This document shows positions 1 through 15,995 of a DNA stretch of 64,000 bases, piece by piece. The notes beneath the pieces were generated by a model, which was given only the letters and a program-made list of their open reading frames with translations, had not been told where the DNA came from and did not search any database. Every line of letters begins with the position of its first letter. The stretch's first letter is position 1. Origin of the DNA: an uncultured bacterium (GTDB taxonomy: Bacteria > Hydrothermota > UBA3072); contig CAZSEX010000003.1 in NCBI GenBank assembly GCA_964606065.1, positions 49,245-113,244 of the forward strand. The letters run 5' to 3'. Both the position numbers and the translations under genes were made by a program.

Positions 1-95
1 CTTCGCATAAAGGAAAAATTTTCGTCGATAGCAGGGAAGGAGAAGGAACCGAATTTACAATTGAATTACCTAAAAAAGGAGGAAATAATGGCTAA
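1..95 (+). CDS. Sensor histidine kinase, C-terminal fragment (HATPase_c end); 5' end lies outside the window
   Basis: Frame 3 translates to ...GKIFVDSREGEGTEFTIELPKKGGNNG*, the typical C-terminus of a histidine-kinase ATPase domain. The stop is at 93-95 and overlaps the next gene's start. Confidence 0.6.
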   Translation, partial: SHKGKIFVDSREGEGTEFTIELPKKGGNNG

Positions 96-486
96 AGTTT
101 TAGTGGCTGATGATGTCCCTTCTATTTTATATCTCTTTAAAGAATTTTTCAAACTCAAAGGTTTTGAGGTAGACACAGCGGATAACGGTTTTGAAGTTAG
201 CAAGAAACTCGGCAAAAACAACTATCATCTTTTAGTTCTTGATATTAAGATGGGAGGAAAACACGGATTGGAAGTTCTCCAGAACTTAATCGAGCGGGGT
301 CATAAACTTCCGGTAATTATTTGCACCGCGTATGAACACTTAAAAGAAGACGTAGAAATTATTGCTAAAGACAAATTAGACGTGGATTTCATAACCAAAC
401 CTCCGGATTTAGAACTTCTCTGGGAGAAAGTAGTTCGGTTGCTGAAAAAAAATGCAATTAGAGAAGAAGTGGGAAAAAATAACTGA
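88..486 (+). CDS. Single-domain response regulator (CheY-like receiver)
   Basis: MAKVLVADD...LLVLDIKMGG matches the receiver-domain acidic pocket and phospho-Asp context. SD aaaggagg lies 6 nt upstream of the ATG at 88. The track ORF 61-486 probably starts too early. Confidence 0.8.
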   Translation: MAKVLVADDVPSILYLFKEFFKLKGFEVDTADNGFEVSKKLGKNNYHLLVLDIKMGGKHGLEVLQNLIERGHKLPVIICTAYEHLKEDVEIIAKDKLDVDFITKPPDLELLWEKVVRLLKKNAIREEVGKNN

Positions 487-1951
487 AAGCGAGAATCTAA
501 ACGAACTTTTGAAAAGGATTCTCGATCTTTCTCAAGAAGTCCTTCAAAGTGAAGCCGCCACGTTATTTCTCGTGGATCATAATACCGGAGAATTAGTATT
601 TAAGATTGTAAAGGGTCCCGAAGCCGGTAAATTGCAGGGAAAAAGAATAAAAATCGGGGAAGGAATAGCCGGTAGAACCGCCATAGAAGGAAAGTCTTTT
701 GTTGTTAACAGGCCAAAGAGTTCCGGATACGCGGATCAATTTGATAAACAAACCGGTTTTAACACCGAATCTCTGCTTGCCGCCCCTCTTATTATAGACG
801 GAGAAACAATCGGAGTAATCGAGGTAATTAATAGCCGTGGTGGTAAATACAACGAAAGAAGTAAAGAAATAATAGAACAGCTTGCGGCTCAGGTTTCCTC
901 TGGACTCAAAATGACTCTTCTCAGTGAAAGACTTTCAAAATCCGAAGAGTTCCTAAATTCAATCATAAACTCTTTACCTGGAGGTATAATAATTTTAGAC
1001 GAAGAAGGAATCATAACAAAATCTAACCCGACAGCAGAAGAAATGCTTTCAATAAAAAACATTGAGGGAGAATATCTCGAGGCAATTTTACCTCACCGCG
1101 AAATATTTACAAATATAAAATCTATCGAAAACAGGGGAAGCTTCGAAGCTGTCATCCGAAAAAACGGAAAAGAAAATCATTTAAATTTCGAATTATCTAA
1201 AGCTAAAGAAATAAGTTCTTCCGGTATAGAAAAAGAATATTCGATCATTCAGATTAACGACATTACAGAAAGGGTAGAACTAAACAGGTTAAAATACTTG
1301 CAGGAAATAAACGCAAATTTTGTACTCGGTTTATCGCATCGTCTGAGAACGCCTCTTACCCCTATTCTCGGTTTATCGAGCCTTTTAAAAAACCGGGAGG
1401 ATCTTCCGGAAAATCTTAAAGAAACGGCAGAAACAATTTACGATTCGGCTATGGAAATGAAAGATATGGTAGAAAAACTTCTGGATATAGCTGAGATTGG
1501 CACGGAAAAAACAATCAAGACAGATGAAAAAATAAATTTTATCTCGGTCCTGGATTTAATTACTAAAAATTTCGTTAATTTTCACATAAAGGCTGATACC
1601 GAAAACAAGAATTTGTTCATCTATGGTAATTACAACTGGCTGGCTAAATCGCTCAGACAATTATTCGCCATCGGTTTAAAGAATGATAGCAAAAATTTAC
1701 GAGTTGAATTAGAAGAAAAAAAAGATAGTTTATATCTTAACCTTAAAGGTTCTAAATCTTTGATAGACGATTTTTCCGCTCTGGAAAACACGCCTATTCT
1801 TTCATTCGATAATCCCCTAACGGGAAATTCGGACATTAAATATTTAGATATTTCTCTTATCAGGTTAATTCTGAATAAACATAACGTTAAAATCACAGTA
1901 AAAGAAGACAAACTATTGCTTTCTTTAGGCTTCAAAAAAGCAAAATCATAA
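452..1951 (+). CDS. GAF-PAS-HisKA sensor protein with a degenerate C-terminal ATPase-like region
   Basis: GAF-like N-terminus, PAS-like middle (LPGGIIILDEEGIITKSNPTAEEML) and H-box LGLSHRLRTPLTPILGL. The C-terminus lacks clear G1 (DxGxG) and G2 (GxGLGL) boxes. Confidence 0.7.
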   Translation: MQLEKKWEKITESENLNELLKRILDLSQEVLQSEAATLFLVDHNTGELVFKIVKGPEAGKLQGKRIKIGEGIAGRTAIEGKSFVVNRPKSSGYADQFDKQTGFNTESLLAAPLIIDGETIGVIEVINSRGGKYNERSKEIIEQLAAQVSSGLKMTLLSERLSKSEEFLNSIINSLPGGIIILDEEGIITKSNPTAEEMLSIKNIEGEYLEAILPHREIFTNIKSIENRGSFEAVIRKNGKENHLNFELSKAKEISSSGIEKEYSIIQINDITERVELNRLKYLQEINANFVLGLSHRLRTPLTPILGLSSLLKNREDLPENLKETAETIYDSAMEMKDMVEKLLDIAEIGTEKTIKTDEKINFISVLDLITKNFVNFHIKADTENKNLFIYGNYNWLAKSLRQLFAIGLKNDSKNLRVELEEKKDSLYLNLKGSKSLIDDFSALENTPILSFDNPLTGNSDIKYLDISLIRLILNKHNVKITVKEDKLLLSLGFKKAKS

Positions 1952-1967
1952 ATTAAAGCGTCCAAAA

Positions 1968-3539
1968 TTAATAAAGAAAAGTACTCCCACCTATAAATTC
2001 TCTTAAAATAGAAGTTTGAGGTATCTCTTTCTCTGGAATATTCAGGAAATGGTCAAGAAAATTTAAAAGCCTGAGAGCTTCGCAATAATAAGGCGAACCA
2101 GTAGAAACACATCTCAAAGGTGTTTCCAGGAAAACTTTCAATACGGAAAGCTCATAAACAAGAGATGAATTAAACATAACATCTGCCCTTTCCTGATAAG
2201 GGAAAACAAACTGATCCTCACCCTCTTTAACTGATTCCCATTGTTTCAGAGTGTGTTCCGCATTATATCCCCTATACCTCGTATCTCTAAAAACCCTCCT
2301 CAAAAGCCGGAGGTCCCGGGTTGGTATTCTGTTAATTCTGTTAATATTCAACTGAGTAAGAGGTGAAACATATATTAGAAAAGTTTTTAGAGAAATGTTT
2401 TTCATTAATGCCGGATTGAAACAATGCAAACCCTCTATTATAAGTATATTATTTTCCTGTAAATCAAAGACCTCCTGACTTTTTTCTCTTTTACCCGTTT
2501 TAAAATTAAAATACTGCCTTTCCACTTTTTTCCCTTTGCTCAAATCATTTACATGTTTTCTAAACAGATCGATATCCAGAGCAGAAAAGGAATCGAAAAA
2601 ATGCGTCCCGTCTTTATAGTAAGGTGTTTTATCCCTTTCAAAAAAGTAGTCGTCGAGTGACATATAAACCGGTTCAATTCCGTGTACACGCAGGTGAATA
2701 CCAAGCCTCTTTGAAAAAGTGGTTTTACCCGAAGAAGAGGGTCCGGCTATCAAAACAGCCTTGATATTTTCCCCTTCTTTAAGTATTCTCTTACAAATAT
2801 CAGTTATCTTTTCGCTGTGAATAACCTCGGCTATCTTCAAAATGTCCGATATTTCGCTTCTAATTATATAATGGTTAAGCTGAGAGACATCCCAGATTTT
2901 CAAGATTTCCGCTTCTTTTCTTGCTTCTCTATAAGCATTAAACAGCTTTTCTCTCTTCTCGATTTTTCCTATACTGGAGGGGTCTTCTTTGGAAGGAAGA
3001 ATCAACAAAAACCCCCCTTTTACAGATTTCAAGTCGAAAGTGGAAAGGAATCCGGTGTTAGGAAGTAAAGGTCCGGCAAAGTAAGCGGAAAAACCATCTA
3101 TTTTATAAACAGGGATATAGGATGCCGCTAAATTTTTAAGAATATTTATATCATCTTCTCTTCCCGAAAGATAATGCATGGCTTCCAACTTCGGCAGCAT
3201 TACTTTTTCTATATTCTTGTTTTCTCTTATAAGAGCATTCACTTTTTTCTTGATTGTCCTTAAATTTAAAGGGCCCTTGAGGAATCTCCCGAAAATGGCA
3301 TTCCCGTATGAATGCTCTATTTTAATTGTAACTCCTTTTTCCTTGCAAACATAATCGAGTAAAAAAACAAGCGTTCTTTCGTAAGTTCTCATCCCTTCGG
3401 TATCCCCCAGATCGAGAAATTCGACCGAACTTCCTTCTGGTGCGCTGTTCTGAAGTGAAATATACTGATTATCTACTTTAGCTAATGTTACAGGAAACTG
3501 TAACTCGGGATATTCGTCAAGTATTTTTCGGCTCATCAA
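1968..3539 (-). CDS. Uridine kinase / phosphoribulokinase-family nucleoside kinase with N-terminal ThrRS/TGS-like extension
   Basis: P-loop AGPSSSGKTTFSKRLG, plus the PRK/UDK signatures DDYFF, ILIIEGLH and LRLLRRVFRDTRYRG. Its start overlaps the stop of the upstream GGDEF gene. Confidence 0.65.
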   Translation of the reverse strand: MMSRKILDEYPELQFPVTLAKVDNQYISLQNSAPEGSSVEFLDLGDTEGMRTYERTLVFLLDYVCKEKGVTIKIEHSYGNAIFGRFLKGPLNLRTIKKKVNALIRENKNIEKVMLPKLEAMHYLSGREDDINILKNLAASYIPVYKIDGFSAYFAGPLLPNTGFLSTFDLKSVKGGFLLILPSKEDPSSIGKIEKREKLFNAYREARKEAEILKIWDVSQLNHYIIRSEISDILKIAEVIHSEKITDICKRILKEGENIKAVLIAGPSSSGKTTFSKRLGIHLRVHGIEPVYMSLDDYFFERDKTPYYKDGTHFFDSFSALDIDLFRKHVNDLSKGKKVERQYFNFKTGKREKSQEVFDLQENNILIIEGLHCFNPALMKNISLKTFLIYVSPLTQLNINRINRIPTRDLRLLRRVFRDTRYRGYNAEHTLKQWESVKEGEDQFVFPYQERADVMFNSSLVYELSVLKVFLETPLRCVSTGSPYYCEALRLLNFLDHFLNIPEKEIPQTSILREFIGGSTFLY

Positions 3540-5088
3540 TCAAAGAGATTGCTTTTTCCACATTTATATACGCTATATTGTTTCTTCCTCTACCTTTTAC
3601 ATAATACATTGCCAGATCCGAAAGCCTCAGCAAATCATAGAAATTTCCGCTATCCATAGGATAGCAGGCTATACCAAAACTTGCCTTAATTTTAACTTTT
3701 ATTGTTTTTTTCTCATCTTTTATGCGGAATGTTTTTGTTGATATTGCATCTTTAAGTTCCTTTGTGAAATCGATTGCCTGTTTTAAATCCATCTTACGCA
3801 GAACTATAACGTACTCATCGCCACCGTAGCGGATTCCTACGTGTTGCCTGTTTTTTATCTTGCCTTGAATTTCTTTGCCCACGAGCCGCAACAACTTGCT
3901 TCCTATCAAGTGGTTGTAACTATCGTTAACATTTTTAAAATGATCCAGATCCATAAAAACCACGGCTCCTTTCCCCTCCTCTTCTTTCCATTTGTTAACA
4001 ATTGCAGGCAGGTATTCATTACAATAACGCGAGTTATACAAATCCGTAAGTTCGTCAGTAATGGTAGCCAGTCTTATTTTTTCATAAAGCCTGGCATTGT
4101 CGATAGCTATGCCAAGCTGGTAAGAAACCTCTTTGATTATTTTAGCCTCTTCTTTATTAAACGCGTATTTTTCAGGAGAACCTATAACCGTTACCCCGAT
4201 CAGTTTATCTCCCTTTTTGATTGGAATAACCATTTCGGACTTAAATTCTGCACTAAGCTCTTTAAATTTTTTACTTTTTTCCGTGTCCTGACAAATAACC
4301 ATTTCCTGCTCTTTCAACACTTCTCCAATCAGACCTTTACTCTTTAGAATTTTTTTCTCCGGCTCAACCTTTCCTTTTCCCGAAAACCCTTTTAACACCA
4401 CATAGGAACCTTCCTCGAGAGCTATTCCCACAAAATAGTAATCAAACGCTTTCTGAATTAACTCCGCACTCTTTTTCAAAAGCTTATTGAGATCAAGAAT
4501 AGAAGTAATTGTTTTGTTAATATCAAAAATAAGCGTTAATTGACCAACCTTAGATTTGAGATTTTGAACCAGATTAGCATTCTCAAGCGCGATAGCCGCA
4601 TGTTCAGCGTAATTGTTTACCAGATTCAAATCCTTTTCATTAAAAGGTTTCCCTCCTTTTTTATTTATAGCTTCTATTATACCCAATATCTTTCCCTTAC
4701 TGATTAAAGGGACAGAAAGAATGGTTCTGGTTACAAAACCCGTTTGCTTATCTATGTTCTGGAAAAATCTTTTATCTTCATAAGGATTGGTTACAATCGC
4801 AGGTTTTTTGTTTTTTACAGTCCAACCAACGACACCTTTATTGAGAGGCATCCTTTCCCCTTCTAATTTATCCTTCTTTTCTCCTATTACTTCTTTAAAA
4901 ACGAGCTCCTCTCTTTCCTTGTCCAATAAAAGCAAAGACCATGCTTCTGCATCAAGGAGACGGGAAACATTCTTCATTATCAGCTTAAGCACCTCATCGA
5001 TTTCGATATCAGGCGAATTAATCGCCTTCAGAATTTCTCCGAAGTCCTCGATTTCATTCTTCATCTTTTTCCTCAGGTACAACTTCAT
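3517..5088 (-). CDS. GAF-GAF-GGDEF diguanylate cyclase (GGDEY variant of the active-site motif)
   Basis: Two GAF-like regions followed by the GGDEF domain (VVFMDLDHFKNVND...RYGGDEYVIVL). It overlaps the upstream cyclase gene's 3' end. Confidence 0.8.
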   Translation of the reverse strand: MKLYLRKKMKNEIEDFGEILKAINSPDIEIDEVLKLIMKNVSRLLDAEAWSLLLLDKEREELVFKEVIGEKKDKLEGERMPLNKGVVGWTVKNKKPAIVTNPYEDKRFFQNIDKQTGFVTRTILSVPLISKGKILGIIEAINKKGGKPFNEKDLNLVNNYAEHAAIALENANLVQNLKSKVGQLTLIFDINKTITSILDLNKLLKKSAELIQKAFDYYFVGIALEEGSYVVLKGFSGKGKVEPEKKILKSKGLIGEVLKEQEMVICQDTEKSKKFKELSAEFKSEMVIPIKKGDKLIGVTVIGSPEKYAFNKEEAKIIKEVSYQLGIAIDNARLYEKIRLATITDELTDLYNSRYCNEYLPAIVNKWKEEEGKGAVVFMDLDHFKNVNDSYNHLIGSKLLRLVGKEIQGKIKNRQHVGIRYGGDEYVIVLRKMDLKQAIDFTKELKDAISTKTFRIKDEKKTIKVKIKASFGIACYPMDSGNFYDLLRLSDLAMYYVKGRGRNNIAYINVEKAISLIDEPKNT

Positions 5089-7570
5089 AAATTATTTTAA
5101 CTCTTCCTTTTTTAATCTCAAGTTCTCCTTCCTCATTAATAGCAAGACTCAAATCCTCAGGCATGTCGAATTTTAAAGCTTTTCTTTTATCCTGCTCATC
5201 TAAATTGTAAATACCAACGGGAGAAACACTAAAACCATCAAAGAAAAACGAACGGTCTTTATTTTCAGCTTTTAATATATAAAGAAGTTTATTAATAATT
5301 CCTTTTTCGGAGTCATCCTTTTCAAGTGGTTCTGTAAGCAAATAGTCATCCGAATTAAGTATTAAATTTATCAATGTATTATTGTCAATCAAGATAACCG
5401 AACGTTCAGGACTTCTCCCTGAAGAAAGCAACGCCGCTTCATCTACAAGTATCCCATTCAAATCAGGATCCCCAAAAGCATTAGGGGTAAAGATTAAATC
5501 CTTGCCGGGACTACCACTGGCAATTCCGATTCCAAGCCTAAACAACGACTTAAACTGAGGCGGCAACAAAGCGTAAGTTATTCCCTCGTGAAAGATTTCC
5601 TTTTCCGTTATTTCTCCAAACCATTCCCTGTATCTCACGTAATTTTCTTTAACGAATTTTTCGGCGGCTTTAACCATATTCAAAGCTGTTCTTATCGCCA
5701 TTTCGGCACTTTTCATGTGAGGTAATAGATTGAATTCGTCTTCAAGAGCCGTCGAATAGCGCACAATCGCACCCGATCTGGTCTTAGAAGTTTTGTAAAT
5801 ATTCCTGTAAAGTTTTTGAGAATTACTCCCAAACCATAGAATCCCTCCATCCCCGGTATCTTTCAATATAAAAGAAGAACCTTTTCTGGCAGCCTCAAAA
5901 ATACAGGATTGAAAAAGAGAAATAATAGACCTTTCTCTTTCGGCATCTCGCAATCTATGGGACATAAAAGTGGATCCTCTTATATCGTAAACAAGCGTGG
6001 CAACCAGAGAAGAAAATTTCTTCCGAAGAATCCTGGAAACCTTTTCTTTTAGCTCCATATCTTCTCTATCAATCTTCGGTTCAATCTTTCCCGCTTTGGA
6101 AAATCTGTAAAACTTCCCTCTCGGTAATAAATCCAACCCCACAAGGTGAATTATCCTGTCTCCGTTTATTCTCGATCTGGGGTTGTCGAAACCAACAGAA
6201 GGGGGCCATATTTCCACCATGTTACTAATAATATCTCGAACGTATATAACCTCAAGAATCTCATAAAAAACCATCTTGTAATTATATATTACTCTCTTGA
6301 TATCAGGGGAAAAAGATCTCTTTTGATCAGAGCCTAATTTAGAAAAAAGCTGATTGTCCTTCGATGTCTTTTCGGTCTTCCGCAAAAAACGAATAATAGC
6401 CCTTTCGGATGAAGGACTTATAATGGCTAAAAAAGGCTGGGCCTTCCAGAACTCCAACACAAGTTTTTCAATTTCCCATGAAGGGGCGGGGGGCAAAAAA
6501 GAAATCAAATCCTGCGGTTTAATACCCTGAAGAGCCCGGTTCTGGTCTATCTCATCTTTCAGGGCCGCACCGGAATCTTTAAGCTCTTGAACCATTCGAA
6601 GGTGCAATTTTAATGTTTCTTCAAGTTTAGTGATTTCTTCCTGAATCTTCGTGAGCGCCACAGATAAGTCCTGATTTTTAACATCTATTAAAGCCTGCAA
6701 TTTGTTAAGACTCTTTTGTAAAAATTTATTGGTTTCTTCCCGAACTTTCATGTCTTTTCCATCCAGACTTCTATCTCTTTCCACCAATTTCTTTTTTGCC
6801 TTCACCGCCTTCTGAGAAGCTATTTTAGCTAAAGTTTGCAAAACATTTTTAGAAGGAACAAAGAATTTTTCAAAAGGAAAATTTCTTAAAGATCGCATAT
6901 TGGTTATTTCAGAATTCTTGAAAAGAGAAATAATATCACTAGATTCTCTCTCTGTAAAATTTTCTATCAAAATATCGTGTATTTTCATAAAAACCGATGG
7001 CGTAAATCCATATCCGGCAAGAGAACGTTCAAAATCTACGAGGCTTAAATTTCGAACGGGAAACCCCGCAAAAAAGCATTCTTTTGTTATCAATTTCGTA
7101 AAAGGTTTTATTTTCTGCTCAGGTATCCCCTCCAAAAGGACATTGACAAGTTTTGTGCCAACCTTCTGAGCCTCACGAAAACTTCCGATTAATTCATTCG
7201 GATATAATTTGATCAATAAGGATAAAAGTATTACAAAAAAATGTTCACCTTTATCTAAAGCATTGAGAAATAAATCGCACAAAAATTTCTTGTCCTTTTT
7301 ATACAGCTTATCTTCCTTTATTCTGACAAATATGTCCCTGAGATAGGCAAGTTCTCCTTTTTCGATTTCAACAAATATTTTCACTCTGTGAGCGGCGACA
7401 AAATCCGAAAAGGTTGTTTTAATAGATCGGGGTTTGAAATACTGCGTTAAAAGTTTTTTATAGTATCTAAAGAGACTTTTCTCTCCAACGCTTTCTTCAA
7501 GAGTATCAAGAAGCTTGCTTTCGTACGTACTGGCAATTTCTAAATACGCCGGACTGAACTTTTCTTTCAT
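5054..7570 (-). CDS. 838-aa protein with C-terminal class III adenylate/guanylate-type nucleotidyl cyclase catalytic domain; large N-terminal region of unknown function with a coiled coil
   Basis: VYDIRGSTFM, ILKDTGDGGILWFG and FRLGIGIASGSPGKDLIFTPNAFGDPDLNGILVDEAALL match the CHD pattern (fxDIxGFT / KtIGDaym / RiGihxG...dvwGdxVNxAsR). The start ATG overlaps the pyrC stop (ATGA). Confidence 0.6.
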   Translation of the reverse strand: MKEKFSPAYLEIASTYESKLLDTLEESVGEKSLFRYYKKLLTQYFKPRSIKTTFSDFVAAHRVKIFVEIEKGELAYLRDIFVRIKEDKLYKKDKKFLCDLFLNALDKGEHFFVILLSLLIKLYPNELIGSFREAQKVGTKLVNVLLEGIPEQKIKPFTKLITKECFFAGFPVRNLSLVDFERSLAGYGFTPSVFMKIHDILIENFTERESSDIISLFKNSEITNMRSLRNFPFEKFFVPSKNVLQTLAKIASQKAVKAKKKLVERDRSLDGKDMKVREETNKFLQKSLNKLQALIDVKNQDLSVALTKIQEEITKLEETLKLHLRMVQELKDSGAALKDEIDQNRALQGIKPQDLISFLPPAPSWEIEKLVLEFWKAQPFLAIISPSSERAIIRFLRKTEKTSKDNQLFSKLGSDQKRSFSPDIKRVIYNYKMVFYEILEVIYVRDIISNMVEIWPPSVGFDNPRSRINGDRIIHLVGLDLLPRGKFYRFSKAGKIEPKIDREDMELKEKVSRILRKKFSSLVATLVYDIRGSTFMSHRLRDAERERSIISLFQSCIFEAARKGSSFILKDTGDGGILWFGSNSQKLYRNIYKTSKTRSGAIVRYSTALEDEFNLLPHMKSAEMAIRTALNMVKAAEKFVKENYVRYREWFGEITEKEIFHEGITYALLPPQFKSLFRLGIGIASGSPGKDLIFTPNAFGDPDLNGILVDEAALLSSGRSPERSVILIDNNTLINLILNSDDYLLTEPLEKDDSEKGIINKLLYILKAENKDRSFFFDGFSVSPVGIYNLDEQDKRKALKFDMPEDLSLAINEEGELEIKKGRVKIIYEVVPEEKDEE

Positions 7571-8850
7571 TTTTTCTTTTTCTTAAAATCACCGTTCTCA
7601 AAAACGGTTCGCCCGTCAACTATACAGTACTTAACTACTCCCTCCAATTTCCATCCCAGAAAAGGAGAGTTTTTCGATTTTGAAGCAAAAACGTCGGCGG
7701 CAACCTTCCAATTACTCTTTAGATCTACAATCGTAAAATCCGCTATTGCTCCTTCTTTTATCTCTCCAAACGGAAGATTAAATATCCTTGCGGGCGAAGA
7801 TGTCAAAACCTTAATTAATACGTTGAGAGAAATTTTACCCTTCTTGACCAATTCCGTGTACAATACCGCGAAAGAAGTTTCCAGCCCCGTAACACCAAAA
7901 GCCGCCTCTGAAAACTCGATATCTTTTTTGTAATCCGGATGCGGAGCATGATCGGTTGCTACGATTTCTATTAAACCATCTTTTATCGCTCTTTGCAAAA
8001 CTTCAACATCATACATGGTTCTTAAAGGAGGTTTCATCTTCTTGTTTGAATCAAAATCCTTAATCAATTCGTCGCTCAAAAGTAAATGGTGAGGTGTAAC
8101 CTCTGAAGTTACTCTATCGTTTTTCCATTGTTTAATCAATTTAACCGAATCCGCAGCGGAAACATGCGCAAGGTGAACCCTTCCCCGGGTAAACTTAGAC
8201 AACAAAATATCTCTTGCCACAACTGTAGATTCAGATACATCGGGTATGCCTTTGAATCCTAATCCTGCAGAAACAGAACCTTCATGCATCTGACCTTTAT
8301 TGGAAAGAGAAATATCCTCAGGATGGTCAATTATAGGGACATCAAATAACTTAGAATATTCCAAAGCATTACGCATTATTCCTGAATTTCTCACACAATC
8401 TCCGTCATCACTGAAAGCAACACAACCTGCCTGATAAAGATGCGACATCTCCGAAAGTTCCTTACCCTCTCTTTCTTTTGTAATGGTCCCTATGGGGAAA
8501 ACCCTGCAAAGCCCTACTTCCTCGCTCTTTTCCTTTATAAAACGGGCGACGCCTTCATTATCAATCGGAGGATTCGTATTAGGCATAACACAAACAGATG
8601 TATAACCTCCTTTAACCGCAGCTTTAGAACCTGATTCTATAGTCTCCGCATCTTCCGCGCCAGGCTCACGAAAATGAGAGTGTACATCAACTAAACCAGG
8701 AAAGAGATATAATCCTTCCCCGTCAATTTCCTTTCTGGCTGAAGATCCTGTCCCCTTCACAACTTTCCCTTTATCAACCAACAGAGTTCCAACCTCGTCG
8801 ATACCGCTTAAAGGATCAAAAAGGTGTATATTTTTAATTTTTATGTCCAT
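7567..8850 (-). CDS. pyrC: Dihydroorotase
   Basis: DVHSHFREPG metal-binding signature and an amidohydrolase fold sequence. It is adjacent to pyrB. Confidence 0.9.
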   Translation of the reverse strand: MDIKIKNIHLFDPLSGIDEVGTLLVDKGKVVKGTGSSARKEIDGEGLYLFPGLVDVHSHFREPGAEDAETIESGSKAAVKGGYTSVCVMPNTNPPIDNEGVARFIKEKSEEVGLCRVFPIGTITKEREGKELSEMSHLYQAGCVAFSDDGDCVRNSGIMRNALEYSKLFDVPIIDHPEDISLSNKGQMHEGSVSAGLGFKGIPDVSESTVVARDILLSKFTRGRVHLAHVSAADSVKLIKQWKNDRVTSEVTPHHLLLSDELIKDFDSNKKMKPPLRTMYDVEVLQRAIKDGLIEIVATDHAPHPDYKKDIEFSEAAFGVTGLETSFAVLYTELVKKGKISLNVLIKVLTSSPARIFNLPFGEIKEGAIADFTIVDLKSNWKVAADVFASKSKNSPFLGWKLEGVVKYCIVDGRTVFENGDFKKKKK

Positions 8851-9787
8851 TTAATTTCCTCTGGGATAACAGATAAAGAACACTCATTCTCACGGCGACT
8901 CCCGTAGCCACCTGACTTAACACGAGAGAATATTCGGAATCCGCAATCCTCGACTCGATTTCGATTCCTCTGTTAATCGGTCCTGGATGCATTATAACAA
9001 CTTCTTTAGCTGCAAATTTTTTTAGCTTTTCATATGTAAGAGAGTAATCCTTTATATATTCACGGAGAGAAGGGAACAAACTTTCCCCCTGTCTTTCTTT
9101 TTGAATCCTTAAGATATAGAGAACTTCTCTCCCGGGTAGGGTTTTTTCCAGGCTAAACTCAAACTCGACTCCAAAAGATTCCATCCAAAGAGGCAAAAGA
9201 GTGGGCGGAGCACAGACAGTAATACGGGCTCCCATTTTATTAAGCCCTAAAACCAGAGAACGGGCAACCCTGGAATGCTTAATGTCCCCAATAATAGCTA
9301 TATTCAAATCTTTAAACACGGAAAATCTTTTCTTTAAAGTCATAATATCTATCAATGCCTGAGTTGGATGCTCGTGACATCCATCTCCGGCATTTATTAT
9401 AGAAGCTGTTAATTTCTTAGACAGAAAATGAGGGCTGCCAGGCGCGGAATGCCTTATGACTATTACATCTACTTCCATCGCCTGAATATTTTTCGCGGTA
9501 TCCAACAATGTTTCCCCTTTTAAAACCGAAGAGGATGCAGCTGAAAAGTTGATGGAATCAGCTGAGAGTCGTTTCTCGGCAAGAGCAAAAGAGTTTAATG
9601 TTCTCGTACTTGGTTCGAAGAAAAGGTTGGCCACTGTAATACCCCTAAGTGTAGGAGCTTTTTTAATCGGTCGTTTCAGGATTTCTTCCATATATTCGGC
9701 TGTTGTTATGATTTCTTCTATTTCTTCGTTCGACAGCCCCTGAATTCCAAGTAAATCTTTCCTATCCATTTTTATTTGAAACCTCAA
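8834..9787 (-). CDS. pyrB: Aspartate carbamoyltransferase catalytic subunit
   Basis: STRTLNSFALAEKRL, HPTQALIDIMT and HPGP motifs. The true start may be the internal MDRKDLLGIQ Met. Confidence 0.9.
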   Translation of the reverse strand: MRFQIKMDRKDLLGIQGLSNEEIEEIITTAEYMEEILKRPIKKAPTLRGITVANLFFEPSTRTLNSFALAEKRLSADSINFSAASSSVLKGETLLDTAKNIQAMEVDVIVIRHSAPGSPHFLSKKLTASIINAGDGCHEHPTQALIDIMTLKKRFSVFKDLNIAIIGDIKHSRVARSLVLGLNKMGARITVCAPPTLLPLWMESFGVEFEFSLEKTLPGREVLYILRIQKERQGESLFPSLREYIKDYSLTYEKLKKFAAKEVVIMHPGPINRGIEIESRIADSEYSLVLSQVATGVAVRMSVLYLLSQRKLNGHKN

Positions 9788-10325
9788 TCACTCTGACCAA
9801 ATCCTCTTTATCCGTTTCCTGAAAAAGAACCTGAATTTCTTCCCCTTCCTTTAAATCCACCGGAATACCGGTATAATCAGGGATTATTGGAAGCTCTCTT
9901 CCCTCTCTTTTAACCATAACGGCAAGCTTTACCCTCAAAGGTCTTCCATAATCTATTATCTCGTCAAGAGCAGCTCTGATTGTTCTACCGGTATAAATGA
10001 CATCGTCTACCAACAGAACTTCTTTCCCTTCTATCGAGCAGGGGAAATACGTGGAACCTATAATAGGTTTGGGTCCATATAACGTCAGATCATCTCTATA
10101 TAATGTTATATCCAGAACTCCTACATTAATTTTCCACGAAGTGGACTTCTTTAAAATACGCGCCAATCTCTTGGCGAGAATATCCCCTCTTTTTCTAATA
10201 CCTATTATACACAGAAAATCGATATCAGGATCATCTTTTGCAATATCTGTTGCCAGTCTGACAACAGTTTTCCGCATCTCTTCTTTGTTTAATAAGACTC
10301 TTTTTTCTTTGAATTTAATATCCAT
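9762..10325 (-). CDS. pyrR: Bifunctional pyrimidine operon regulator / uracil phosphoribosyltransferase PyrR
   Basis: PRTase motif LLVDDVIYTGRTIRAALD and overall collinearity with Bacillus PyrR. The start is chosen at MDIKFKEKRVLL, because the track ORF starts at an upstream GTG. Confidence 0.85.
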   Translation of the reverse strand: MDIKFKEKRVLLNKEEMRKTVVRLATDIAKDDPDIDFLCIIGIRKRGDILAKRLARILKKSTSWKINVGVLDITLYRDDLTLYGPKPIIGSTYFPCSIEGKEVLLVDDVIYTGRTIRAALDEIIDYGRPLRVKLAVMVKREGRELPIIPDYTGIPVDLKEGEEIQVLFQETDKEDLVRVIEVSNKNG

Positions 10326-10456
10326 ACGAGGGATATTCCATAGATACGAGGCAGGAAACACATGCCATTTTCCCTTTCATATAGCCTCCTTCTCTATTAA
10401 TTTATTAAAAATAAATGAATAGTCAAGGTTTCTTTTGAATTTGTGTTTTTTTAAAC

Positions 10457-10484
10457 TTGACTTTTGCGAGTATAGAAATATAAT
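10457..10484 (+). promoter_or_regulatory. Sigma70-like promoter for the M42 peptidase gene
   Basis: TTGACT, 16-nt spacer, then TATAAT, ending about 18 nt upstream of the ATG at 10502. Confidence 0.4.
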
Positions 10485-10501
10485 TAAAACAGGTTAAAAA
10501 A

Positions 10502-11566
10502 ATGGACAAAGAATTAAAAAAATTTTTTCGCGATCTGGTAGAAGCCCCAAGCCCTTCCGGTTTTGAAGAACCTGCCCAAGAGGTGTATAGGCAATTCGTA
10601 AAAAAACATTCCGATGAAGTAAAAACGGATGTCCATGGTAATGTCATTGCCTTTCGTAAAGGAAACGGAAAGTTAAAAATGATGATTTCCGGACACGCTG
10701 ACGAAGTGGGATTTATGGTCAATTTTATCGACAATGATGGATTCATATACTTTCGACCTATAGGCGGCATTGATCCCTCTCTTTTACCGGGACTTAAGGT
10801 AGATATATATACAAAAAACGGTAAAATAAGAGGAGTTATCGGCAAAAAAGCCATTCACATGATGGAAAAAGAAGAAAAAGAAAAGACTCCACATATAAAG
10901 GATCTATGGGTTGATATCGGAGCAAGGGACAAAGAGCAGGCAAAAAGCATAGTTTCAATAGGGGATCCAATGACTTTCCAATTAGGAATGGAAGAGCTGC
11001 AAAACGATCTCGTACTTACCAAAGCCACTGACAACAAAACTGGTGTTTTCGCCGCGGGAGCTCTCCTTAAATATTTAGAGAAAGAAAAAATCGCGGTAAA
11101 TTTGTTCTGTGTTTCCTCCGTTCAGGAAGAAATTGGGCTTAGAGGTGCCATTACCAGCTCTTTCGGGATTGCTCCGGAATTGGGATTGGCTTTTGATGTA
11201 ACAATCACAACCGATCACCCCACTACAGAAAAAAAGAAGTATGGCGATATTTCTCTTAACAGGGGTCCGGTAATCGCGAAAGGAGCCAATATCAATCCCG
11301 TTATTTTTAATATGTTGATTGAAACTGCGGAAAAAAATAAAATTGACTATCAAATCGAAGCGGCTCCAAGAGCAACCGGAACAGACGCAAATGCTATACA
11401 ACTCTCAAGGAGCGGCGTAGCTACAGCCTTAATCAGCTTTCCCAATCGCTATATGCATACCCCTATCGAAATTATTTCCCTAAAAGATGTAGAAAACGCC
11501 GTGAAGCTTACCGGAGAATTTATCAAAACTCTGAACGATAAAATAGACTTCACTCCGGGAATGTAA
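10502..11566 (+). CDS. M42 family aminopeptidase (FrvX / glutamyl aminopeptidase-like)
   Basis: N-terminus MDKELKKFFRDLVEAPSPSGFEEP and HADEVGFMV are typical of M42 peptidases. Confidence 0.85.
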   Translation: MDKELKKFFRDLVEAPSPSGFEEPAQEVYRQFVKKHSDEVKTDVHGNVIAFRKGNGKLKMMISGHADEVGFMVNFIDNDGFIYFRPIGGIDPSLLPGLKVDIYTKNGKIRGVIGKKAIHMMEKEEKEKTPHIKDLWVDIGARDKEQAKSIVSIGDPMTFQLGMEELQNDLVLTKATDNKTGVFAAGALLKYLEKEKIAVNLFCVSSVQEEIGLRGAITSSFGIAPELGLAFDVTITTDHPTTEKKKYGDISLNRGPVIAKGANINPVIFNMLIETAEKNKIDYQIEAAPRATGTDANAIQLSRSGVATALISFPNRYMHTPIEIISLKDVENAVKLTGEFIKTLNDKIDFTPGM

Positions 11567-11571
11567 TTCTC

Positions 11572-12537
11572 TCACCTTCGTATAATCACAAAGGCTATAT
11601 AAAATATGTATAAAAGAAGGAGGATCCCTCCTTCTTTTTTAGATATTGTCCTTCTGGTGTAGGCAAACACAAGAAAAATGACAGAAACTCCAAGCACGAA
11701 CCATAAATCTTTAAATGCCACAGGAGGAAAATATAGAGGACGGATTGCTGCAGACAAACCAAGAACAAACAGGATGTTGAAGATATTGCTACCCACCACG
11801 TTACCTATAGCTATATCAGATTCTCCCTTCTTCATCGCGGCAAGAGATGTTGCCACTTCGGGCAGCGAGGTTCCAAGAGCTATTACGGTAACACCGATGA
11901 GAATTTCAGAAACGCCAAGCCTCTTTGCTATAATTACCGCGTTATCAACAATAAGATTAGCCCCGAAAAGAACTCCTGCTGTACCGAATATTAACAGAAC
12001 GCTCGCTTTAAATATTTCCCTTCCAGAATAATTAATCTTCGGAAGATCAGGATTCAAAAGAAACGATTCCCTATCCTTCTTAGCCATAGAATAAAGATAA
12101 TAGATATAAACAAAAAGAAAAATAAGAAGTATTGTTCCGTCGAACCGGGAAAGATACGCCTCCTCTTTCCCAAACCAATCGTCACAAAGCATTAACAAGA
12201 TTATTATAACAACTGCCAGACAAAAAGGCGTTTCCATTTTCAACGTCGATTCTCTGGCTTCAATGGTCCATATAAGTGCGCTAAGCCCGAGAATAAGACC
12301 CATATTCGCAATGTTGCTGCCGAGAACATTTCCGAAAGAAATCGAAGAATAGGATGAAATAGCAGCTTTAACCGATACAGCCGCCTCCGGCGCACTGGTT
12401 CCCAACGCCGCAACAGAAAGACCTATAAATAATGACGAAAGACCGAAAATCGCCGCCAGCTCTACAGCTCCGTCGATCATATAATCCGCACCCTTTACCA
12501 GCAGAACAAACCCTATAAACAAAAGAAAATAATTCAT
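11572..12537 (-). CDS. Ca2+/Na+ antiporter (CaCA / YrbG family)
   Basis: Two alpha-repeat motifs (GNVLGSNIANMGL and GNVVGSNIFNILFVLG) and about 10 TM helices. Confidence 0.8.
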   Translation of the reverse strand: MNYFLLFIGFVLLVKGADYMIDGAVELAAIFGLSSLFIGLSVAALGTSAPEAAVSVKAAISSYSSISFGNVLGSNIANMGLILGLSALIWTIEARESTLKMETPFCLAVVIIILLMLCDDWFGKEEAYLSRFDGTILLIFLFVYIYYLYSMAKKDRESFLLNPDLPKINYSGREIFKASVLLIFGTAGVLFGANLIVDNAVIIAKRLGVSEILIGVTVIALGTSLPEVATSLAAMKKGESDIAIGNVVGSNIFNILFVLGLSAAIRPLYFPPVAFKDLWFVLGVSVIFLVFAYTRRTISKKEGGILLLLYIFYIAFVIIRR

Positions 12538-12599
12538 TTAAGCGAGAATACAAATTTATTCGGTTTTTGTCAATGGGACAAAAAACTCTTTATCAGCAC

Positions 12600-12627
12600 T
12601 TGACTTATAGCAAATCTTTATTATACT
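12600..12627 (+). promoter_or_regulatory. Sigma70-like promoter upstream of rpsU
   Basis: TTGACT, 16 nt, then TATACT. It is followed by a leader of about 75 nt with an aGGGAGGGAGG purine tract. Confidence 0.4.
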
Positions 12628-12703
12628 TTTGTTGATATTATTAAAATAAAGTAAACAGGGAGGGAGGAATAAAAAAACAAAACCTTGAGAGGAGGTGTTT
12701 TTT

Positions 12704-12883
12704 TTGCCAGGAGTAACAATTAAAGACGGAGAATCTTTCGAAAAAGCTTTTAAGCGATTCAAAAGATTATGCGAAAAAGAAAAAATAAGAAGCGAAATAA
12801 AAAAGCATCAGCACTATGAAAAACCAAGCGAAAAAAGACAGAGAAAACGTAAAGATTTTAGTAAAGGAAGGAAAAATAATTAG
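12704..12883 (+). CDS. rpsU: 30S ribosomal protein S21
   Basis: (M)[49 protein letters not shown] matches S21. TTG is taken as the start, 8 nt after GGAGG. The track ORF starts at an upstream GTG. Confidence 0.8.
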
Positions 12884-12953
12884 ATACAAAGTTCTTCTCG
12901 CTATCCCCTGAACCGAGTTTCTTTTACAAAAAACTATTTTCAAATAAATTATA

Positions 12954-13505
12954 ATGAATTTATTTGATTTATGTTCTCTGATAGTTATCATTGGTTTCTG
13001 TTTGTGGGGAATGATAAAGGGCTTCATCATCGAAATTTCTGAAATCGGGGGATTAATACTTTCTTTTATCCTGGCGCTTTATTTCCCTTTGGGCTTAGAT
13101 ATTGGAGGAATTAAATATGTCGTAAGCTTTGTTGCTTACTTTTTTGCAATTAGTATTTTCTTTTCTATTCTTTCAAAAATTATCCACAAAACCCCTCTTG
13201 CTTTCATCGATAGAATACTCGGAGCCGCCTTAGGCGCTCTCAAAGGACTAATTGCGATAATCATACTCTTCATCATCATAAGCCTTGTCCCTTTAAATGG
13301 GGCTAAAAGTAATTTGAAGGAAAGCTTTTTCTATAAAGCAGCCCTTATCGTAAGAATTCCTCTAAAAAGCTTTTTAAAAAGAAAAACAAACGACTGGAAC
13401 AACTATAAAGAAAAAATACACCCTCTAAAAATACATACAAAAAGAGAAGAACATCTCACGGGCAAAAAAAACGTCGCTCAATGGAACAGCTTTCAAGCAA
13501 AATAG
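12954..13505 (+). CDS. cvpA: CvpA-family membrane protein (colicin V production protein-like)
   Basis: The N-terminal TM pattern MNLFDLCSLIVIIGFCLWGMIKGFI and the size are typical of CvpA. Confidence 0.65.
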   Translation: MNLFDLCSLIVIIGFCLWGMIKGFIIEISEIGGLILSFILALYFPLGLDIGGIKYVVSFVAYFFAISIFFSILSKIIHKTPLAFIDRILGAALGALKGLIAIIILFIIISLVPLNGAKSNLKESFFYKAALIVRIPLKSFLKRKTNDWNNYKEKIHPLKIHTKREEHLTGKKNVAQWNSFQAK

Positions 13506-15598
13506 GATTAAATACACTATTGAAAAAAATTTCCGGGTATGCCGACTCAGAACCCGGGAAAAAAAGGGTTCTTGACCTAACCCCATTAACCTCAAAGAAC
13601 AAAAGACAACTCTCCTTCAAACGCCAAAGAGAAATAAAACAAATATTACATCTGCTTCCTTTCCTCACGATATTGAAAAAGGAAAAAGAAATCGAAAAAG
13701 GACAGATACTATCGGGCGAACAAATACTCTATTATAGAAAATTGTTAGATCTATCAAATGATGTTAAAAATATACTGACAGAAAACAAAACGTTGAAAGA
13801 AATAGCAAACAACTTGGATCCTCTTCTTTCTTTAAGAAATGAAATAATTGAATTTATAGACGAAAACGGCGCCATTATTCCATCCTCGACTCCGGCATTA
13901 AAATCTCTCCACAGAGAAAAAACCTCTGTCGAAAATCAAATAGAAAAAAAGCTCTCCTTTTTTTTAAAAGAAAAAGAATACTTACTTCAGGATAAAATTG
14001 TCACCACTCGATTGGGGAGAACCGTACTTCCTGTTAAATACGACAGGAAAGATGAAATAGAAGGAATAATTGTAGACTTTTCCAGAACCCAAAACACGGC
14101 TTTTATAGAACCGGGAGAAATAACAACTCTCAATAACAGAATTGCCGAGTTAGAAAACGATATAAACACAGAAAAGATAAGAATCCTTAAACTTCTTACA
14201 GGGAAAATTACCGAAAAGTTTTTCCATATCAAAAAAAACACCGACATACTCACAGAGATAGATTCTCTTAAAGCCAGAACGTTATATGCCGAAGACTTTA
14301 AATGTGTTATTCCGAATTTTTCAGAAACAAGTACCTTAAGAATAAAAGAATGTTATCACCCCCTCTTGCTGGAAGGAAAAGAAAATGTCGAACCCCTCGA
14401 TTTAGAGATAGGAAAAAACGAAAGAATTCTACTTATAAGCGGACCGAATGCGGGAGGCAAAACAGTCCTTCTGAAGAATCTGGGACTTAATGTCTTATCT
14501 TCATTGGCCAGCATCCCTATTCCGGCAAAAGAAGGCAGCGAAATTGGTTTTTTTACAAATATTTCGGGAATAATAGAAGATGAACAATCTATAGAAAAAA
14601 ACCTTTCCTCCTTTTCTTCATATATAGTACGACTTAAACAAATCCTGAACAACGCCAACGAAAACAGTCTGATACTCCTTGACGAACTGGGAGGAAATAC
14701 CGACCCCAGCGAGGGCAGCGCCTTATCAATCGCGATCCTTAACGCTTTAAAGGAAAAAGGAAGTCTCGTTATCGCCACAACTCACCTAAGCCCTCTCAAA
14801 TTTTATGTCGAAGAACAGAACGGAATGATCAACGGCTCCATGGAATACGAAAATGGACCAACATATCACCTCCAAATAGGAATCCCGGGGGGTTCGAGAG
14901 CCATAGCAATTGCCGAAAAATATGGATTGCCAGAGGAAATAATCGGCGAGGCAAAAAATTTCATAGACTCAGAAATCCTGAACGCAGAAAAACTGATAGA
15001 AGAGCTTTCCGCAAGAAACAGAAACTTACGCGAAAAGGAAAAAGGAATCACACAAACAAAAGAACGCCTCTCAGCCCTTAAAAAAGAATATGAAAAATTA
15101 ATGGAAAATGCCAATAAAGAAAAAACAAAAATAATAAAGGAAGCAGAAGAAAAGGCAAACCTTATTGTAGCGGAATCACGCTCGAAAGTAGAAAGAACAA
15201 TAAAAAACATAAAAGAAACAAAAGCCTCCAAAGAATCAATCAAAAAATACAAAAAAACCTTCTCGGATATACCGCAAAAAGAAAAGAAAATAAAAAAAGA
15301 AACCATTACGCCCTCCGACAAACACCTCGAAATCAAATATGACATAGACATGGAAATCCCTTTCGAACTTTCCGTAAGAGGAATGACAAAGGAAAAAGCA
15401 TGGGAAACAGCGGATAAATTCCTTGACAAAGCGATAATCGCCGGATATAATTCGGTGAGAATAGTCCACGGAACAGGAAGCTTTATATTAAGAAACATGC
15501 TTCACAGAAAATTAAAAAAGGATAAAAGAGTAAAAAGAATAGACACTCCACCCCATTACGAAGGAGGAGAAGGCGTAACAGTAGCCTTTTTAAAATAG
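13481..15598 (+). CDS. mutS2: Endonuclease MutS2 (MutS domain V ATPase plus C-terminal Smr domain)
   Basis: Walker A ISGPNAGGKTVLLKNLGL, then a long coiled coil and a C-terminal Smr domain (VRIVHGTGSFILRNMLH). Confidence 0.85.
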   Translation: MEQLSSKIGLNTLLKKISGYADSEPGKKRVLDLTPLTSKNKRQLSFKRQREIKQILHLLPFLTILKKEKEIEKGQILSGEQILYYRKLLDLSNDVKNILTENKTLKEIANNLDPLLSLRNEIIEFIDENGAIIPSSTPALKSLHREKTSVENQIEKKLSFFLKEKEYLLQDKIVTTRLGRTVLPVKYDRKDEIEGIIVDFSRTQNTAFIEPGEITTLNNRIAELENDINTEKIRILKLLTGKITEKFFHIKKNTDILTEIDSLKARTLYAEDFKCVIPNFSETSTLRIKECYHPLLLEGKENVEPLDLEIGKNERILLISGPNAGGKTVLLKNLGLNVLSSLASIPIPAKEGSEIGFFTNISGIIEDEQSIEKNLSSFSSYIVRLKQILNNANENSLILLDELGGNTDPSEGSALSIAILNALKEKGSLVIATTHLSPLKFYVEEQNGMINGSMEYENGPTYHLQIGIPGGSRAIAIAEKYGLPEEIIGEAKNFIDSEILNAEKLIEELSARNRNLREKEKGITQTKERLSALKKEYEKLMENANKEKTKIIKEAEEKANLIVAESRSKVERTIKNIKETKASKESIKKYKKTFSDIPQKEKKIKKETITPSDKHLEIKYDIDMEIPFELSVRGMTKEKAWETADKFLDKAIIAGYNSVRIVHGTGSFILRNMLHRKLKKDKRVKRIDTPPHYEGGEGVTVAFLK

Positions 15599-15599
15599 A

Positions 15600-15995
15600 A
15601 TGTTTTATTTTCTTTTAATTTTTTCAAAATCCGCGACAACCGCAATGCTTTTAACAACAATTTTCCCGGGCGGAGGACAATTCTATACGGAAAGATACGC
15701 CAAAGGCATAATAATCGGAGGAACCCAATCCTATCTTATATACAAAGGAATCCAAACACAACTAAGACTGAATGAAATCGAAAAAAATTTAAGCGGCGCT
15801 ACACCCGAAATGATAGAAAATAAAGAAACCCTTCTCCACCAGAGAAGAATAATCACCTGGTGGATGGCGTTAGTCTGGACAATCGGAATCCTGGACGCTT
15901 ACGTAGACGCCCAGCTTTACAACTTCGAGAGCAATCTTTCTTTAGACCGAAACGGAGCCCTCAAAACAGAACTTTCTTTTAAAATAAGATATTAA
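15600..15995 (+). CDS. Small hypothetical membrane protein
   Basis: Two predicted TM segments and no recognisable family. The boundaries come from the ORF track only. Confidence 0.35.
   Translation: MFYFLLIFSKSATTAMLLTTIFPGGGQFYTERYAKGIIIGGTQSYLIYKGIQTQLRLNEIEKNLSGATPEMIENKETLLHQRRIITWWMALVWTIGILDAYVDAQLYNFESNLSLDRNGALKTELSFKIRY

Follow-up and report, generated by a model that had tools for sequence, protein, structure and literature searches.

A divergent class III cyclase-homology protein paired with a Ser-type GAF-GGDEF protein in a pyrR-pyrB-pyrC-kinase gene chain: a candidate cyclic-nucleotide relay

The 64,000-nucleotide (nt) stretch analysed here, called the window (positions 49,245 to 113,244 of contig CAZSEX010000003.1 from an uncultured Hydrothermota bacterium), holds a chain of six minus-strand genes. 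In this chain, pyrR, pyrB and pyrC, ordinary genes of pyrimidine de novo synthesis, lead directly into a gene for a protein of 838 amino acids (aa), referred to here as X, a gene for a GAF-GAF-GGDEF protein and a kinase gene. By their longest open reading frames (ORFs), the six genes span 1968-10361, and they lie where a first-pass annotation, made from the sequence letters, had placed them. This order raises the question of what X and the GGDEF protein do, and whether they have anything to do with the pyrimidine genes ahead of them. The chain appears to consist of three modules that are probably co-transcribed, namely, pyrRBC, a signalling pair formed by X and the GAF-GAF-GGDEF protein, and a nucleoside kinase. 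The coordinates of all features are collected in Table 1.

To begin with X, no match was obtained in Pfam (E-values up to 0.01), NCBIfam or PADLOC, and none of ten X-family members that were scanned carried a significant Pfam domain. Because these profile libraries gave nothing for X and 31 members of its family, the protein was identified through its fold. A full-length AF2 model built from a shallow alignment was poor (predicted local distance difference test, pLDDT, 61.5); accordingly, homologues were searched a second time, and the deeper alignment that resulted served to rebuild the C-terminal domain. In the fold comparison of this model, the C-terminal domain has the palm fold of class III catalytic domains, and the GGDEF and Cas10 palm domains score approximately 10. 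Moreover, a profile of diverse X-family members reached the class III cyclase CyaB by sequence (E 3e-5), with 'YDIRGS' aligned on 'SDIRGFT' and 'KDTGDGG' on 'DKFVGDC'. On the basis of this model, X was confirmed at the level of fold as a very divergent class III cyclase-homology protein. The class III cyclase that had been proposed for the 838-aa protein is therefore upheld at fold level, but without a profile match and without the transition-state Asn and Arg. In the case of the N-terminal 500 residues, the structure search returned no informative match. Relatives of X were obtained from a word-indexed search of 5.8 billion proteins (27 sequences) and from an exhaustive profile search of 1.84 billion representative proteins (52 sequences). 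The lengths and matched regions of the latter 52 suggest that they are X-family members; no canonical cyclase was seen among them, as judged by these two properties and not by checking one by one.

The gene order around X was then compared across relatives. A scan of species-representative genomes, with the six window proteins mapped onto the loci, gave 77 loci (L-numbers below) from WOR-3, Stahlbacteria, TA06, Edwardsbacteria, Cloacimonadota or unnamed metagenome-assembled genomes. Three arrangements were found. In class A, comprising approximately 17 species of one WOR-3 lineage only, the order pyrR-pyrB-pyrC-X-GAF2GGDEF-kinase is kept while the identity of X falls from 85% to 41%, and both flanks differ even in close relatives. 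One sub-lineage of class A carries a PmbA/TldD peptidase gene between pyrC and X (L017 6670-7989; L084 688-2037). In class B, which covers approximately 40 WOR-3/Stahlbacteria species, two tandem X-like genes (X1 and X2) are followed by a REC-GAF-GGDEF gene, and the group stands after ruvX-mltG without pyr genes or the kinase. An example is L028 (5129-12570), where X1 has 805 aa and X2 755 aa, and the X1/X2 and X2/GGDEF junctions overlap by 4 nt each. In class C, the X-like gene is solitary and stands before valS in Cloacimonadota and after ruvX-mltG (YceG) in TA06 (L027 5765-10220); some class A genomes, at the least, also have an X-like gene of this type, flanked by rplQ and valS. The class A X is nearer to X2 (41%) than to X1 (36%). 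In classes A and B together, X and a GAF-GGDEF gene are adjacent in roughly 55 species-level genomes, and all other surroundings differ. The linkage of pyr genes, cyclase, GGDEF gene and kinase that the first-pass annotation had remarked on is hence conserved in related genomes, but it belongs to one lineage and can be interrupted by a peptidase gene; the older link is that of X with the GAF-GGDEF gene. Judged from these gene orders, the adjacency of the pyr genes and the kinase is a derived feature of that lineage.

The partner of X carries two GAF domains. The best Protein Data Bank (PDB) matches of GAF1 are Lcd1 5w10 (E 3e-25, 153 residues), CyaB2 1ykd (1e-23), PDE5/6, PDE10A and PDE2A, and by sequence its closest relatives are thus GAF domains solved with cyclic AMP (cAMP) or cyclic GMP (cGMP); 5W10 is the GAF domain of the cAMP-dependent diguanylate cyclase Lcd1 (PMC11800159). 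The PDB matches of GAF2 are weak and are to fRMsr-like GAF domains such as 3ksg. The GGDEF domain has GGDEY at residues 414-418 (nt 3811-3825) and Ser389 ('HLIGS', nt 3898-3900) at the PleD-D344/GacA-S348 position, where the canonical residue is a guanine-reading Asp; an RxxD I-site is absent. Ser at the GacA-348 position is the signature of Hypr GGDEF enzymes, which make cGAMP (3',3'-cyclic GMP-AMP) and cyclic di-GMP (c-di-GMP) (PMC6456294). Enzymes with this Ser are active only with GGDEx and not with GGEEx, the so-called Goldilocks rule, and either F or Y is tolerated as the last motif residue (PMC6456294). Both sequence features of Hypr enzymes, namely, Ser at the base-reading position and Asp as the third motif residue, are accordingly found in the window protein. 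The features also extend across the X-linked set, in which Ser occupies the Hypr position in 56 of 57 GGDEF domains, and the motif is GGDEY in 56 and GGDEF in one. The lone exception is a gene of Candidatus Edwardsbacteria (L026 9675-10793) with Gly for Ser and GGDEF for GGDEY. The class B copies retain the I-site and have Asp at the PleD-N335 position. Two other GGDEF genes of the window, at 28538-30436 (-) and 40977-41963 (-), provide an internal contrast, with the canonical Asp, GGEEF and an RxxD I-site. The GAF-GGDEF protein named as a diguanylate cyclase in the first reading is confirmed in its domains but does not appear to be a plain diguanylate cyclase, since it carries the Ser-for-Asp Hypr signature; c-di-GMP and/or 3',3'-cGAMP are the products expected from its sequence. 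Judged by its persistence across lineages, the combination of X (or X2) with a Ser-type GGDEF protein bearing a GAF domain for cyclic nucleoside monophosphates reads as an old conserved functional pair.

Whether X can supply a cyclic nucleotide depends on its catalytic residues, which were compared in 31 family members with a between-group identity of just 34-43%. D529, R531, K570, D574, N697, D703, G706 and S724 are invariant among them. D529 and D574 form the metal-binding Asp pair, whose counterparts in the CyaB alignment lie in DIRGFT and GD motifs. Guanylate cyclases use Glu plus Cys/Ser and others as base-specifying residues. In the X family, the base-specifying pair is K570/D703, of which K570 aligns with the CyaB Lys, and Lys/Asp is the base-reading pair of adenylate cyclases (PMC4215837). 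From D703, the Asn slot lies at +7 and the Arg slot 4 residues further, the same spacing as in D157/A164/R168 of Mycobacterium avium Ma1120, which is an active natural cyclase with Ala in the Asn slot (PMC4215837). No comparable precedent was found for a natural active cyclase that lacks the transition-state Arg. At position 714, the Arg slot, the 31 members have mostly Leu, Phe or Val and occasionally Ile, Ala, Thr or Met, and never Arg. At position 710, the Asn slot, the members fall into two groups. The upstream tandem copy X1, the solitary copies and the Cloacimonadota and TA06 forms with a single copy have Arg there and Asn at 713, whereas the copies adjacent to a GGDEF gene (class A X and X2) have D, N, S, A or G. 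Such a split would be expected of a heterodimer in which one site is competent and the other degenerate, as far as sequence can indicate. A second paralogue of the Arg710 type is present in at least five class A genomes. Arg710 paralogues were seen directly 5' of valS in L071 (6975-9209), L081 (885-3101) and L067 (5432-8077), a position conserved across phyla. Ahead of strand beta-4, the domain also contains roughly 50 inserted residues, among which W650, F651 and L669-P670-P671 are invariant.

In the reading preferred here, X and its partner form a relay from a cyclic nucleotide through a GAF domain to a GGDEF domain that makes c-di-GMP and/or cGAMP, co-transcribed in this genome with pyrRBC and the kinase. 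We regard the chances of this reading as evenly balanced; every functional step in it is deduced from the sequences of uncultured organisms, their gene order and the predicted fold. The cyclase-homology domain of X would make, or at least bind, a purine nucleotide, and cAMP would be the likeliest product because the Lys570/Asp703 pair is of the adenylate-cyclase type. X would probably pair with an unlinked paralogue of the Arg710 type in a heterodimer, like asymmetric class III cyclases, because X lacks the Arg710 that other paralogues of the family keep. The cyclic nucleotide would bind GAF1 of the neighbouring protein and switch on its GGDEF domain, which would then make c-di-GMP and/or 3',3'-cGAMP in the manner of Hypr GGDEF enzymes because it combines GGDEY with Ser at the base-reading position. 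Placed after pyrC and before the kinase gene, the pair would have its dosage set by the pyr promoter. A more specific version is rather unlikely, namely, that WOR-3 and related candidate phyla possess a hitherto unrecognised class of their own of heterodimeric class III-type cyclase, with Arg in the Asn slot instead of the canonical Asn/Arg arrangement, which drives a Ser-type GAF-GGDEF protein to 3',3'-cGAMP or another non-canonical dinucleotide and has become hard-wired into the pyr operon in one lineage, where dinucleotide signalling would be regulated together with nucleotide supply.

Each part of this relay resembles a known system. GacB of Myxococcus xanthus is a GAF-Hypr GGDEF enzyme that is activated by cAMP through its GAF domain, with a half-maximal effective concentration of approximately 79 nM, and produces cGAMP and c-di-GMP (bioRxiv 10.1101/600031). 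Like GacB, the window protein places a GAF sensor before a Ser-type GGDEF domain, with a GAF1 of the cyclic-nucleotide type, Ser389 and GGDEx. Unlike GacB, it has two GAF domains, GGDEY instead of GGDEF and no I-site, its ligand and product are predicted, its cross-dimer residue is Ser and not clearly Tyr, and its gene overlaps a cyclase-like gene inside a pyr string. In the case of Leptospira interrogans Lcd1, the same logic of GAF to GGDEF applies, and its GAF domain is the best solved match to GAF1. However, Lcd1 is a cAMP-dependent diguanylate cyclase and the Ser substitution belongs to the window protein; moreover, a linked cyclase gene was not found described for Lcd1 in the texts consulted. 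Compared with class III adenylate cyclases such as Pseudomonas aeruginosa CyaB (3r5g), Ma1120 and mammalian C1/C2, the X family has no PF00211 match, never Arg in the transition-state Arg slot and Asp or Arg in place of Asn, and X adds the insertion, the C-terminal beta subdomain and a helical N-terminus of 500 residues.

Several observations weigh against the relay. In the slots of the transition-state Asn and Arg on helix alpha-4, X has D710 and L714, and catalysis by X alone is doubtful from its sequence because this canonical pair is missing. The positions D703, 710 and 714 were themselves placed by motif spacing and predicted secondary structure (the strand-helix boundary) and not by residue-level superposition. 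The Pfam model Guanylate_cyc PF00211 matched none of 31 diverse C-terminal domains of the family, even at E-values up to 10. An X paralogue was looked for in this 64-kb window and none, of the Arg710 type or other, was found, so that a heterodimer partner is hypothetical for this genome. On the side of the GGDEF protein, it is uncertain which residue corresponds to the Hypr cross-dimer Tyr; a Tyr stands two residues after Ser345, at a position set without alignment to GacA itself. The conserved adjacency of X and the GGDEF gene is weak evidence of shared function because X-family genes also stay beside valS and ruvX-mltG across phyla.

With respect to the cross-dimer residue, Hypr enzymes have a Tyr in place of an Arg that is conserved in 94% of diguanylate cyclases (PMC6456294). 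In the window protein, Ser345 ('YNSRY') stands where the NRR motif has its first Arg, 44 positions before Ser389; across the X-linked set this residue is S, T, V, I, A or N and never Arg.

The residues of X also admit a different reading, in which X is a pseudo-cyclase that binds nucleotide-Mg (ATP or another nucleoside triphosphate) without cyclising it and regulates the GGDEF protein by contact as a sensor of the nucleotide pool. This is a serious minority possibility. Against it, both metal-binding Asp residues, the Lys/Asp pair and Arg531 are invariant throughout the family, whereas a role in binding alone would usually preserve less. Moreover, a natural cyclase can be active without the Asn, as Ma1120 demonstrates, and the cyclic-nucleotide-type GAF domain of the neighbour needs a source of ligand.

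Subsequently, the chain itself was considered. The overlaps at the five junctions amount to 26, 17, 4 (ATGA), 35 and 23 nt when the longest ORFs are taken, and by database-confirmed starts they are 8, 17, 4 (ATGA), 11 and 20 nt. The starts of pyrB (9769), the GGDEF gene (5064) and the kinase gene (3536) were confirmed by looking up the products exactly in a public protein collection, where PyrB of 311 aa, PyrC of 427 aa, the GGDEF protein of 515 aa and the kinase of 522 aa were matched. The chaining of the six genes by overlaps thus held at five of five junctions, including the 17-nt pyrB/pyrC overlap and the ATGA shared by pyrC and X. The 23 nt given for the GGDEF/kinase junction applies to the longest ORFs and becomes 20 nt with the confirmed start, and the alternative spacings of 2 nt for pyrR/pyrB and 5 nt for X/GGDEF were dropped, as no in-frame start codon fits either. 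As a background, the window has 31 further same-strand junctions, of which 8 overlap and 14 measure at most 10 nt, with longest ORFs as gene proxies. Five overlaps in five are tighter than this background (approximately 0.26^5, roughly 1e-3 if the junctions are independent), but genomes of this type are often tightly packed, and in relatives unrelated genes such as htrA, a sigma factor gene, an M23 peptidase gene and thiC overlap too. The overlaps support co-transcription and not shared function, and from the sequence the six-gene chain is real and plausibly one transcript. Its 3' limit is 1968, with a convergent plus-strand GAF-PAS-HisKA gene ending at 1951, and the M42 peptidase gene on its 5' side is divergent, with its start at 10502. 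Two minus-strand ORFs, 1630-1965 and 10423-10854, were rejected as parts of the operon; they are spurious, since they lie across these real plus-strand genes for the histidine kinase and the M42 peptidase, and neither has a family match.

A common transcript does not by itself place the signalling pair under pyrimidine control. The identities of PyrR, PyrB and PyrC are solid by profile (Table 1), with PyrR matching the NCBIfam equivalog NF003549 (188.9 bits against a cut-off of 138) and Pfam Pribosyltran; PyrC reaches the curated cut-off only for the subfamily-domain model TIGR00857. The start of pyrR is most likely ATG 10325, as judged from orthologues of 187-188 aa and a reading of the sequence. 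The promoter-like site of the window is shared with L001 and L009, where the same CCTTGACTATTC...ATAAATT element stands 5' of pyrR. The stop of the candidate 21-codon leader ORF overlaps the pyrR ATG. In relatives, another small ORF takes its place; that of L009 has 37 codons (MDIKKVALSLFVSASLSASGC...) and resembles the signal sequence of a lipoprotein. A search with Rfam over 1-16000 at E-values up to 1 gave no PyrR-binding RNA, and nowhere in the 64-kb window did an Rfam family reach its gathering score, with no tRNA, riboswitch or other known RNA detected. The PyrR consensus-loop pattern gave 13 matches in the window against 8.4 expected, none of them in or near the leader, and the fold of the leader RNA was not significant (z = -1.24), with no attenuator-like fold. 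In the clade at 53% identity, pyrR abuts an SBP-TonB_C gene and there is no room for a leader. Because of the missing PyrR RNA, the unremarkable leader fold and this abutting gene, control of the string by PyrR is unsupported by the sequence; of a PyrR-attenuated pyr operon, the PyrR protein is present, and the RNA element and the terminator/antiterminator were not found. The single transcript under a pyrR promoter and leader, as first proposed, accordingly stands as a plausible transcript, without the PyrR-binding RNA or attenuator.

In more distant class A genomes (X identity approximately 42-54%), pyrR lies directly after an SBP_bac_5-TonB_C fusion gene (L003, L004, L014, L016, L017, L020), whose product ends in ...FPPEGW or a variant, with a gap to pyrR of 5-39 nt and an overlap in L017. 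The co-directional string may therefore begin further upstream in those genomes. Within the chain of the window, a second promoter-like site at 5121-5094 (-), just 5' of the GGDEF start, could give the GGDEF and kinase genes a transcript of their own, judged by its sequence. As a whole, however, the promoter scan yielded no more sites than shuffled sequence did, and none of the internal terminator candidates was convincing.

It may nevertheless be asked whether the pyrimidine link is adaptive, with PyrR and uridine monophosphate (UMP) controlling the transcript, or GAF2 or the N-terminal region of X sensing a pathway intermediate such as N-carbamoyl-aspartate, so that c-di-GMP or cGAMP production is gated by pyrimidine supply. 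The gating of c-di-GMP synthesis by pyrimidine status had been the alternative offered by the first-pass annotation. The persistence of the pyrRBC-X-GGDEF-kinase block from 85% to 41% X identity while both flanks turn over agrees with such a link, as do the overlap of every junction and the fact that the two pyr enzymes of the chain make and consume N-carbamoyl-aspartate. This metabolite modulates c-di-GMP production by Escherichia coli DgcQ (Rossi et al. 2017, as cited in PMC8956108), which likewise ties pyrimidine de novo intermediates to c-di-GMP synthesis. However, the E. coli link is allosteric and its genes are unlinked, whereas here the link consists of gene order only. Moreover, the X-GGDEF pair occurs without pyr or kinase genes in approximately 40 species, the kinase gene lies elsewhere, after mutL, in other WOR-3 genomes, the PmbA/TldD gene separates pyrC from X in one sub-lineage, and the leader region offers neither a PyrR RNA site, an attenuator-like fold or an Rfam match nor, in the 53%-identity clade, any room. 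An adaptive link is thus considered improbable, and the coupling of signalling to pyrimidine synthesis, for which gene order is the evidence, is putative.

In the case of the last gene, solved uridine kinases in the PDB match the product at E approximately 1e-6 to 1e-7, but the Udk equivalog scores are not reached (NF004018 84.9 bits against 180; TIGR00235 81.7 against 220). The uridine-kinase family proposed at first therefore holds for the PRK/Udk domain by Pfam and not at equivalog level. The protein belongs to a very large family of 520-555 aa that has an additional domain at the N-terminus and occurs in Clostridium, Caldisericia, Hydrothermia and WOR-3; source records call its members 'nucleoside kinase' or 'uridine kinase'. 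In another WOR-3 genome, the gene follows mutL and is unlinked to pyr or GGDEF genes. By its sequence, the kinase appears to be an ordinary housekeeping enzyme of the salvage type that was recruited to its position in the chain, and its nucleoside substrate is putative.

X might also be taken as a pyrimidine cyclase that makes cyclic CMP (cCMP) or cyclic UMP (cUMP) in a Pycsar-like manner from the supply of the pyr genes and the kinase, as the first-pass annotation had suggested. The class III-type cyclase fold is common to both. However, PADLOC gave no match of the PycC cyclase type or any other for X, the GGDEF protein or the kinase. A Pycsar effector is a cyclic-nucleotide-binding domain (CNBD) fused to TIR or transmembrane helices (PMC11224242), and the neighbours of X are pyrC and the GAF-GAF-GGDEF gene, with no CNBD-TIR or CNBD-transmembrane effector. 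The base-reading residues differ from those of Pycsar cyclases, the Lys/Asp pair being of the adenylate-cyclase type, the adjacent GAF domain is of the cAMP/cGMP type, and the context is vertically inherited and housekeeping-like. Consequently, membership in Pycsar was rejected, and a cCMP or cUMP product is extremely unlikely.

Table 1. Positions of the chain genes, their domains and the sites 5' of pyrR in the window
Feature	Coordinates	Strand	Basis
Candidate 21-codon leader ORF MKGKMACVSCLVSMEYPSYGY	10315..10380	-	Read from sequence; strong AGGAGG ribosome-binding site
Putative promoter-like site TTGACT-16 nt-TAAATT, 5' of pyrR	10399..10426	-	Consensus scan
pyrR	9762..10325	-	187 aa from ATG 10325; longest ORF from GTG 10361
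pyrB, aspartate carbamoyltransferase catalytic chain, 311 aa	8834..9769	-	NF002032, 380 bits against cut-off 263
pyrC, dihydroorotase, 427 aa	7567..8850	-	TIGR00857, 421 bits against cut-off 279
X residues 1-500, helical and coiled-coil N-terminal region	6071..7570	-	
X residues ~520-745, divergent class III cyclase-homology domain	5336..6013	-	
X residues 746-838 and stop, C-terminal beta-rich subdomain, family-specific	5054..5335	-	Model secondary structure; conserved in family alignments
GAF1, residues ~13-170 of 515, cyclic-nucleotide-type by similarity	4555..5028	-	PDB sequence matches
GAF2, residues ~195-325, not cyclic-nucleotide type by similarity	4090..4482	-	Pfam GAF matches two stretches
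GGDEF domain	3577..4062	-	Pfam GGDEF E 4.5e-32; motif extraction
Long-form nucleoside (uridine-type) kinase, 522 aa	1968..3536	-	Pfam PRK PF00485, E 1.7e-22, 80.6 bits against cut-off 22
Kinase N-terminal domain, ThrRS-like, ~240 residues	2817-3536	-	Weak thrS match at residues 92-210
Kinase P-loop PRK/Udk domain	1971-2816	-	Walker A GPSSSGKT

The convergent gene at the end of the chain, 452-1951 (+), encodes a protein of 499 aa whose GAF domain is approximately 36% identical to GAF1 of the X-linked GGDEF protein and could therefore share its ligand. Despite the length of this GAF-PAS-HisKA protein, HATPase_c was not among its reported domains at E-values up to 0.001. The gene is kept at the chain end in the closest relatives only (L011, L012, L019, L022).

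The components of the chain resemble known systems, namely, class III cyclases, GacB and Lcd1. What is new is the cyclase-homology family, its fixed pairing with a Ser-type GGDEF protein and its placement in a pyr string; literature searches returned no description of any of these three, in agreement, as regards the operon order, with the first reading, which had called the arrangement undescribed. If the relay is true, it would constitute a genetically linked cascade from a cyclase through a cyclic-nucleotide GAF domain to a Ser-type GGDEF domain, and Hypr-type, cGAMP-capable GGDEF signalling would extend to uncultured WOR-3/Stahlbacteria. It would also define a cyclase-homology family that is entirely missed by the current profile libraries Pfam and NCBIfam. 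Moreover, with Arg in the Asn slot of some members and no Arg in the Arg slot, the X family provides a natural experiment on the catalytic residues that a class III enzyme truly needs. The placement of the pair in the pyrR-pyrB-pyrC string and before a nucleoside kinase makes a concrete and testable case, at present one of gene order alone, for a coupling of nucleotide metabolism to second-messenger output.

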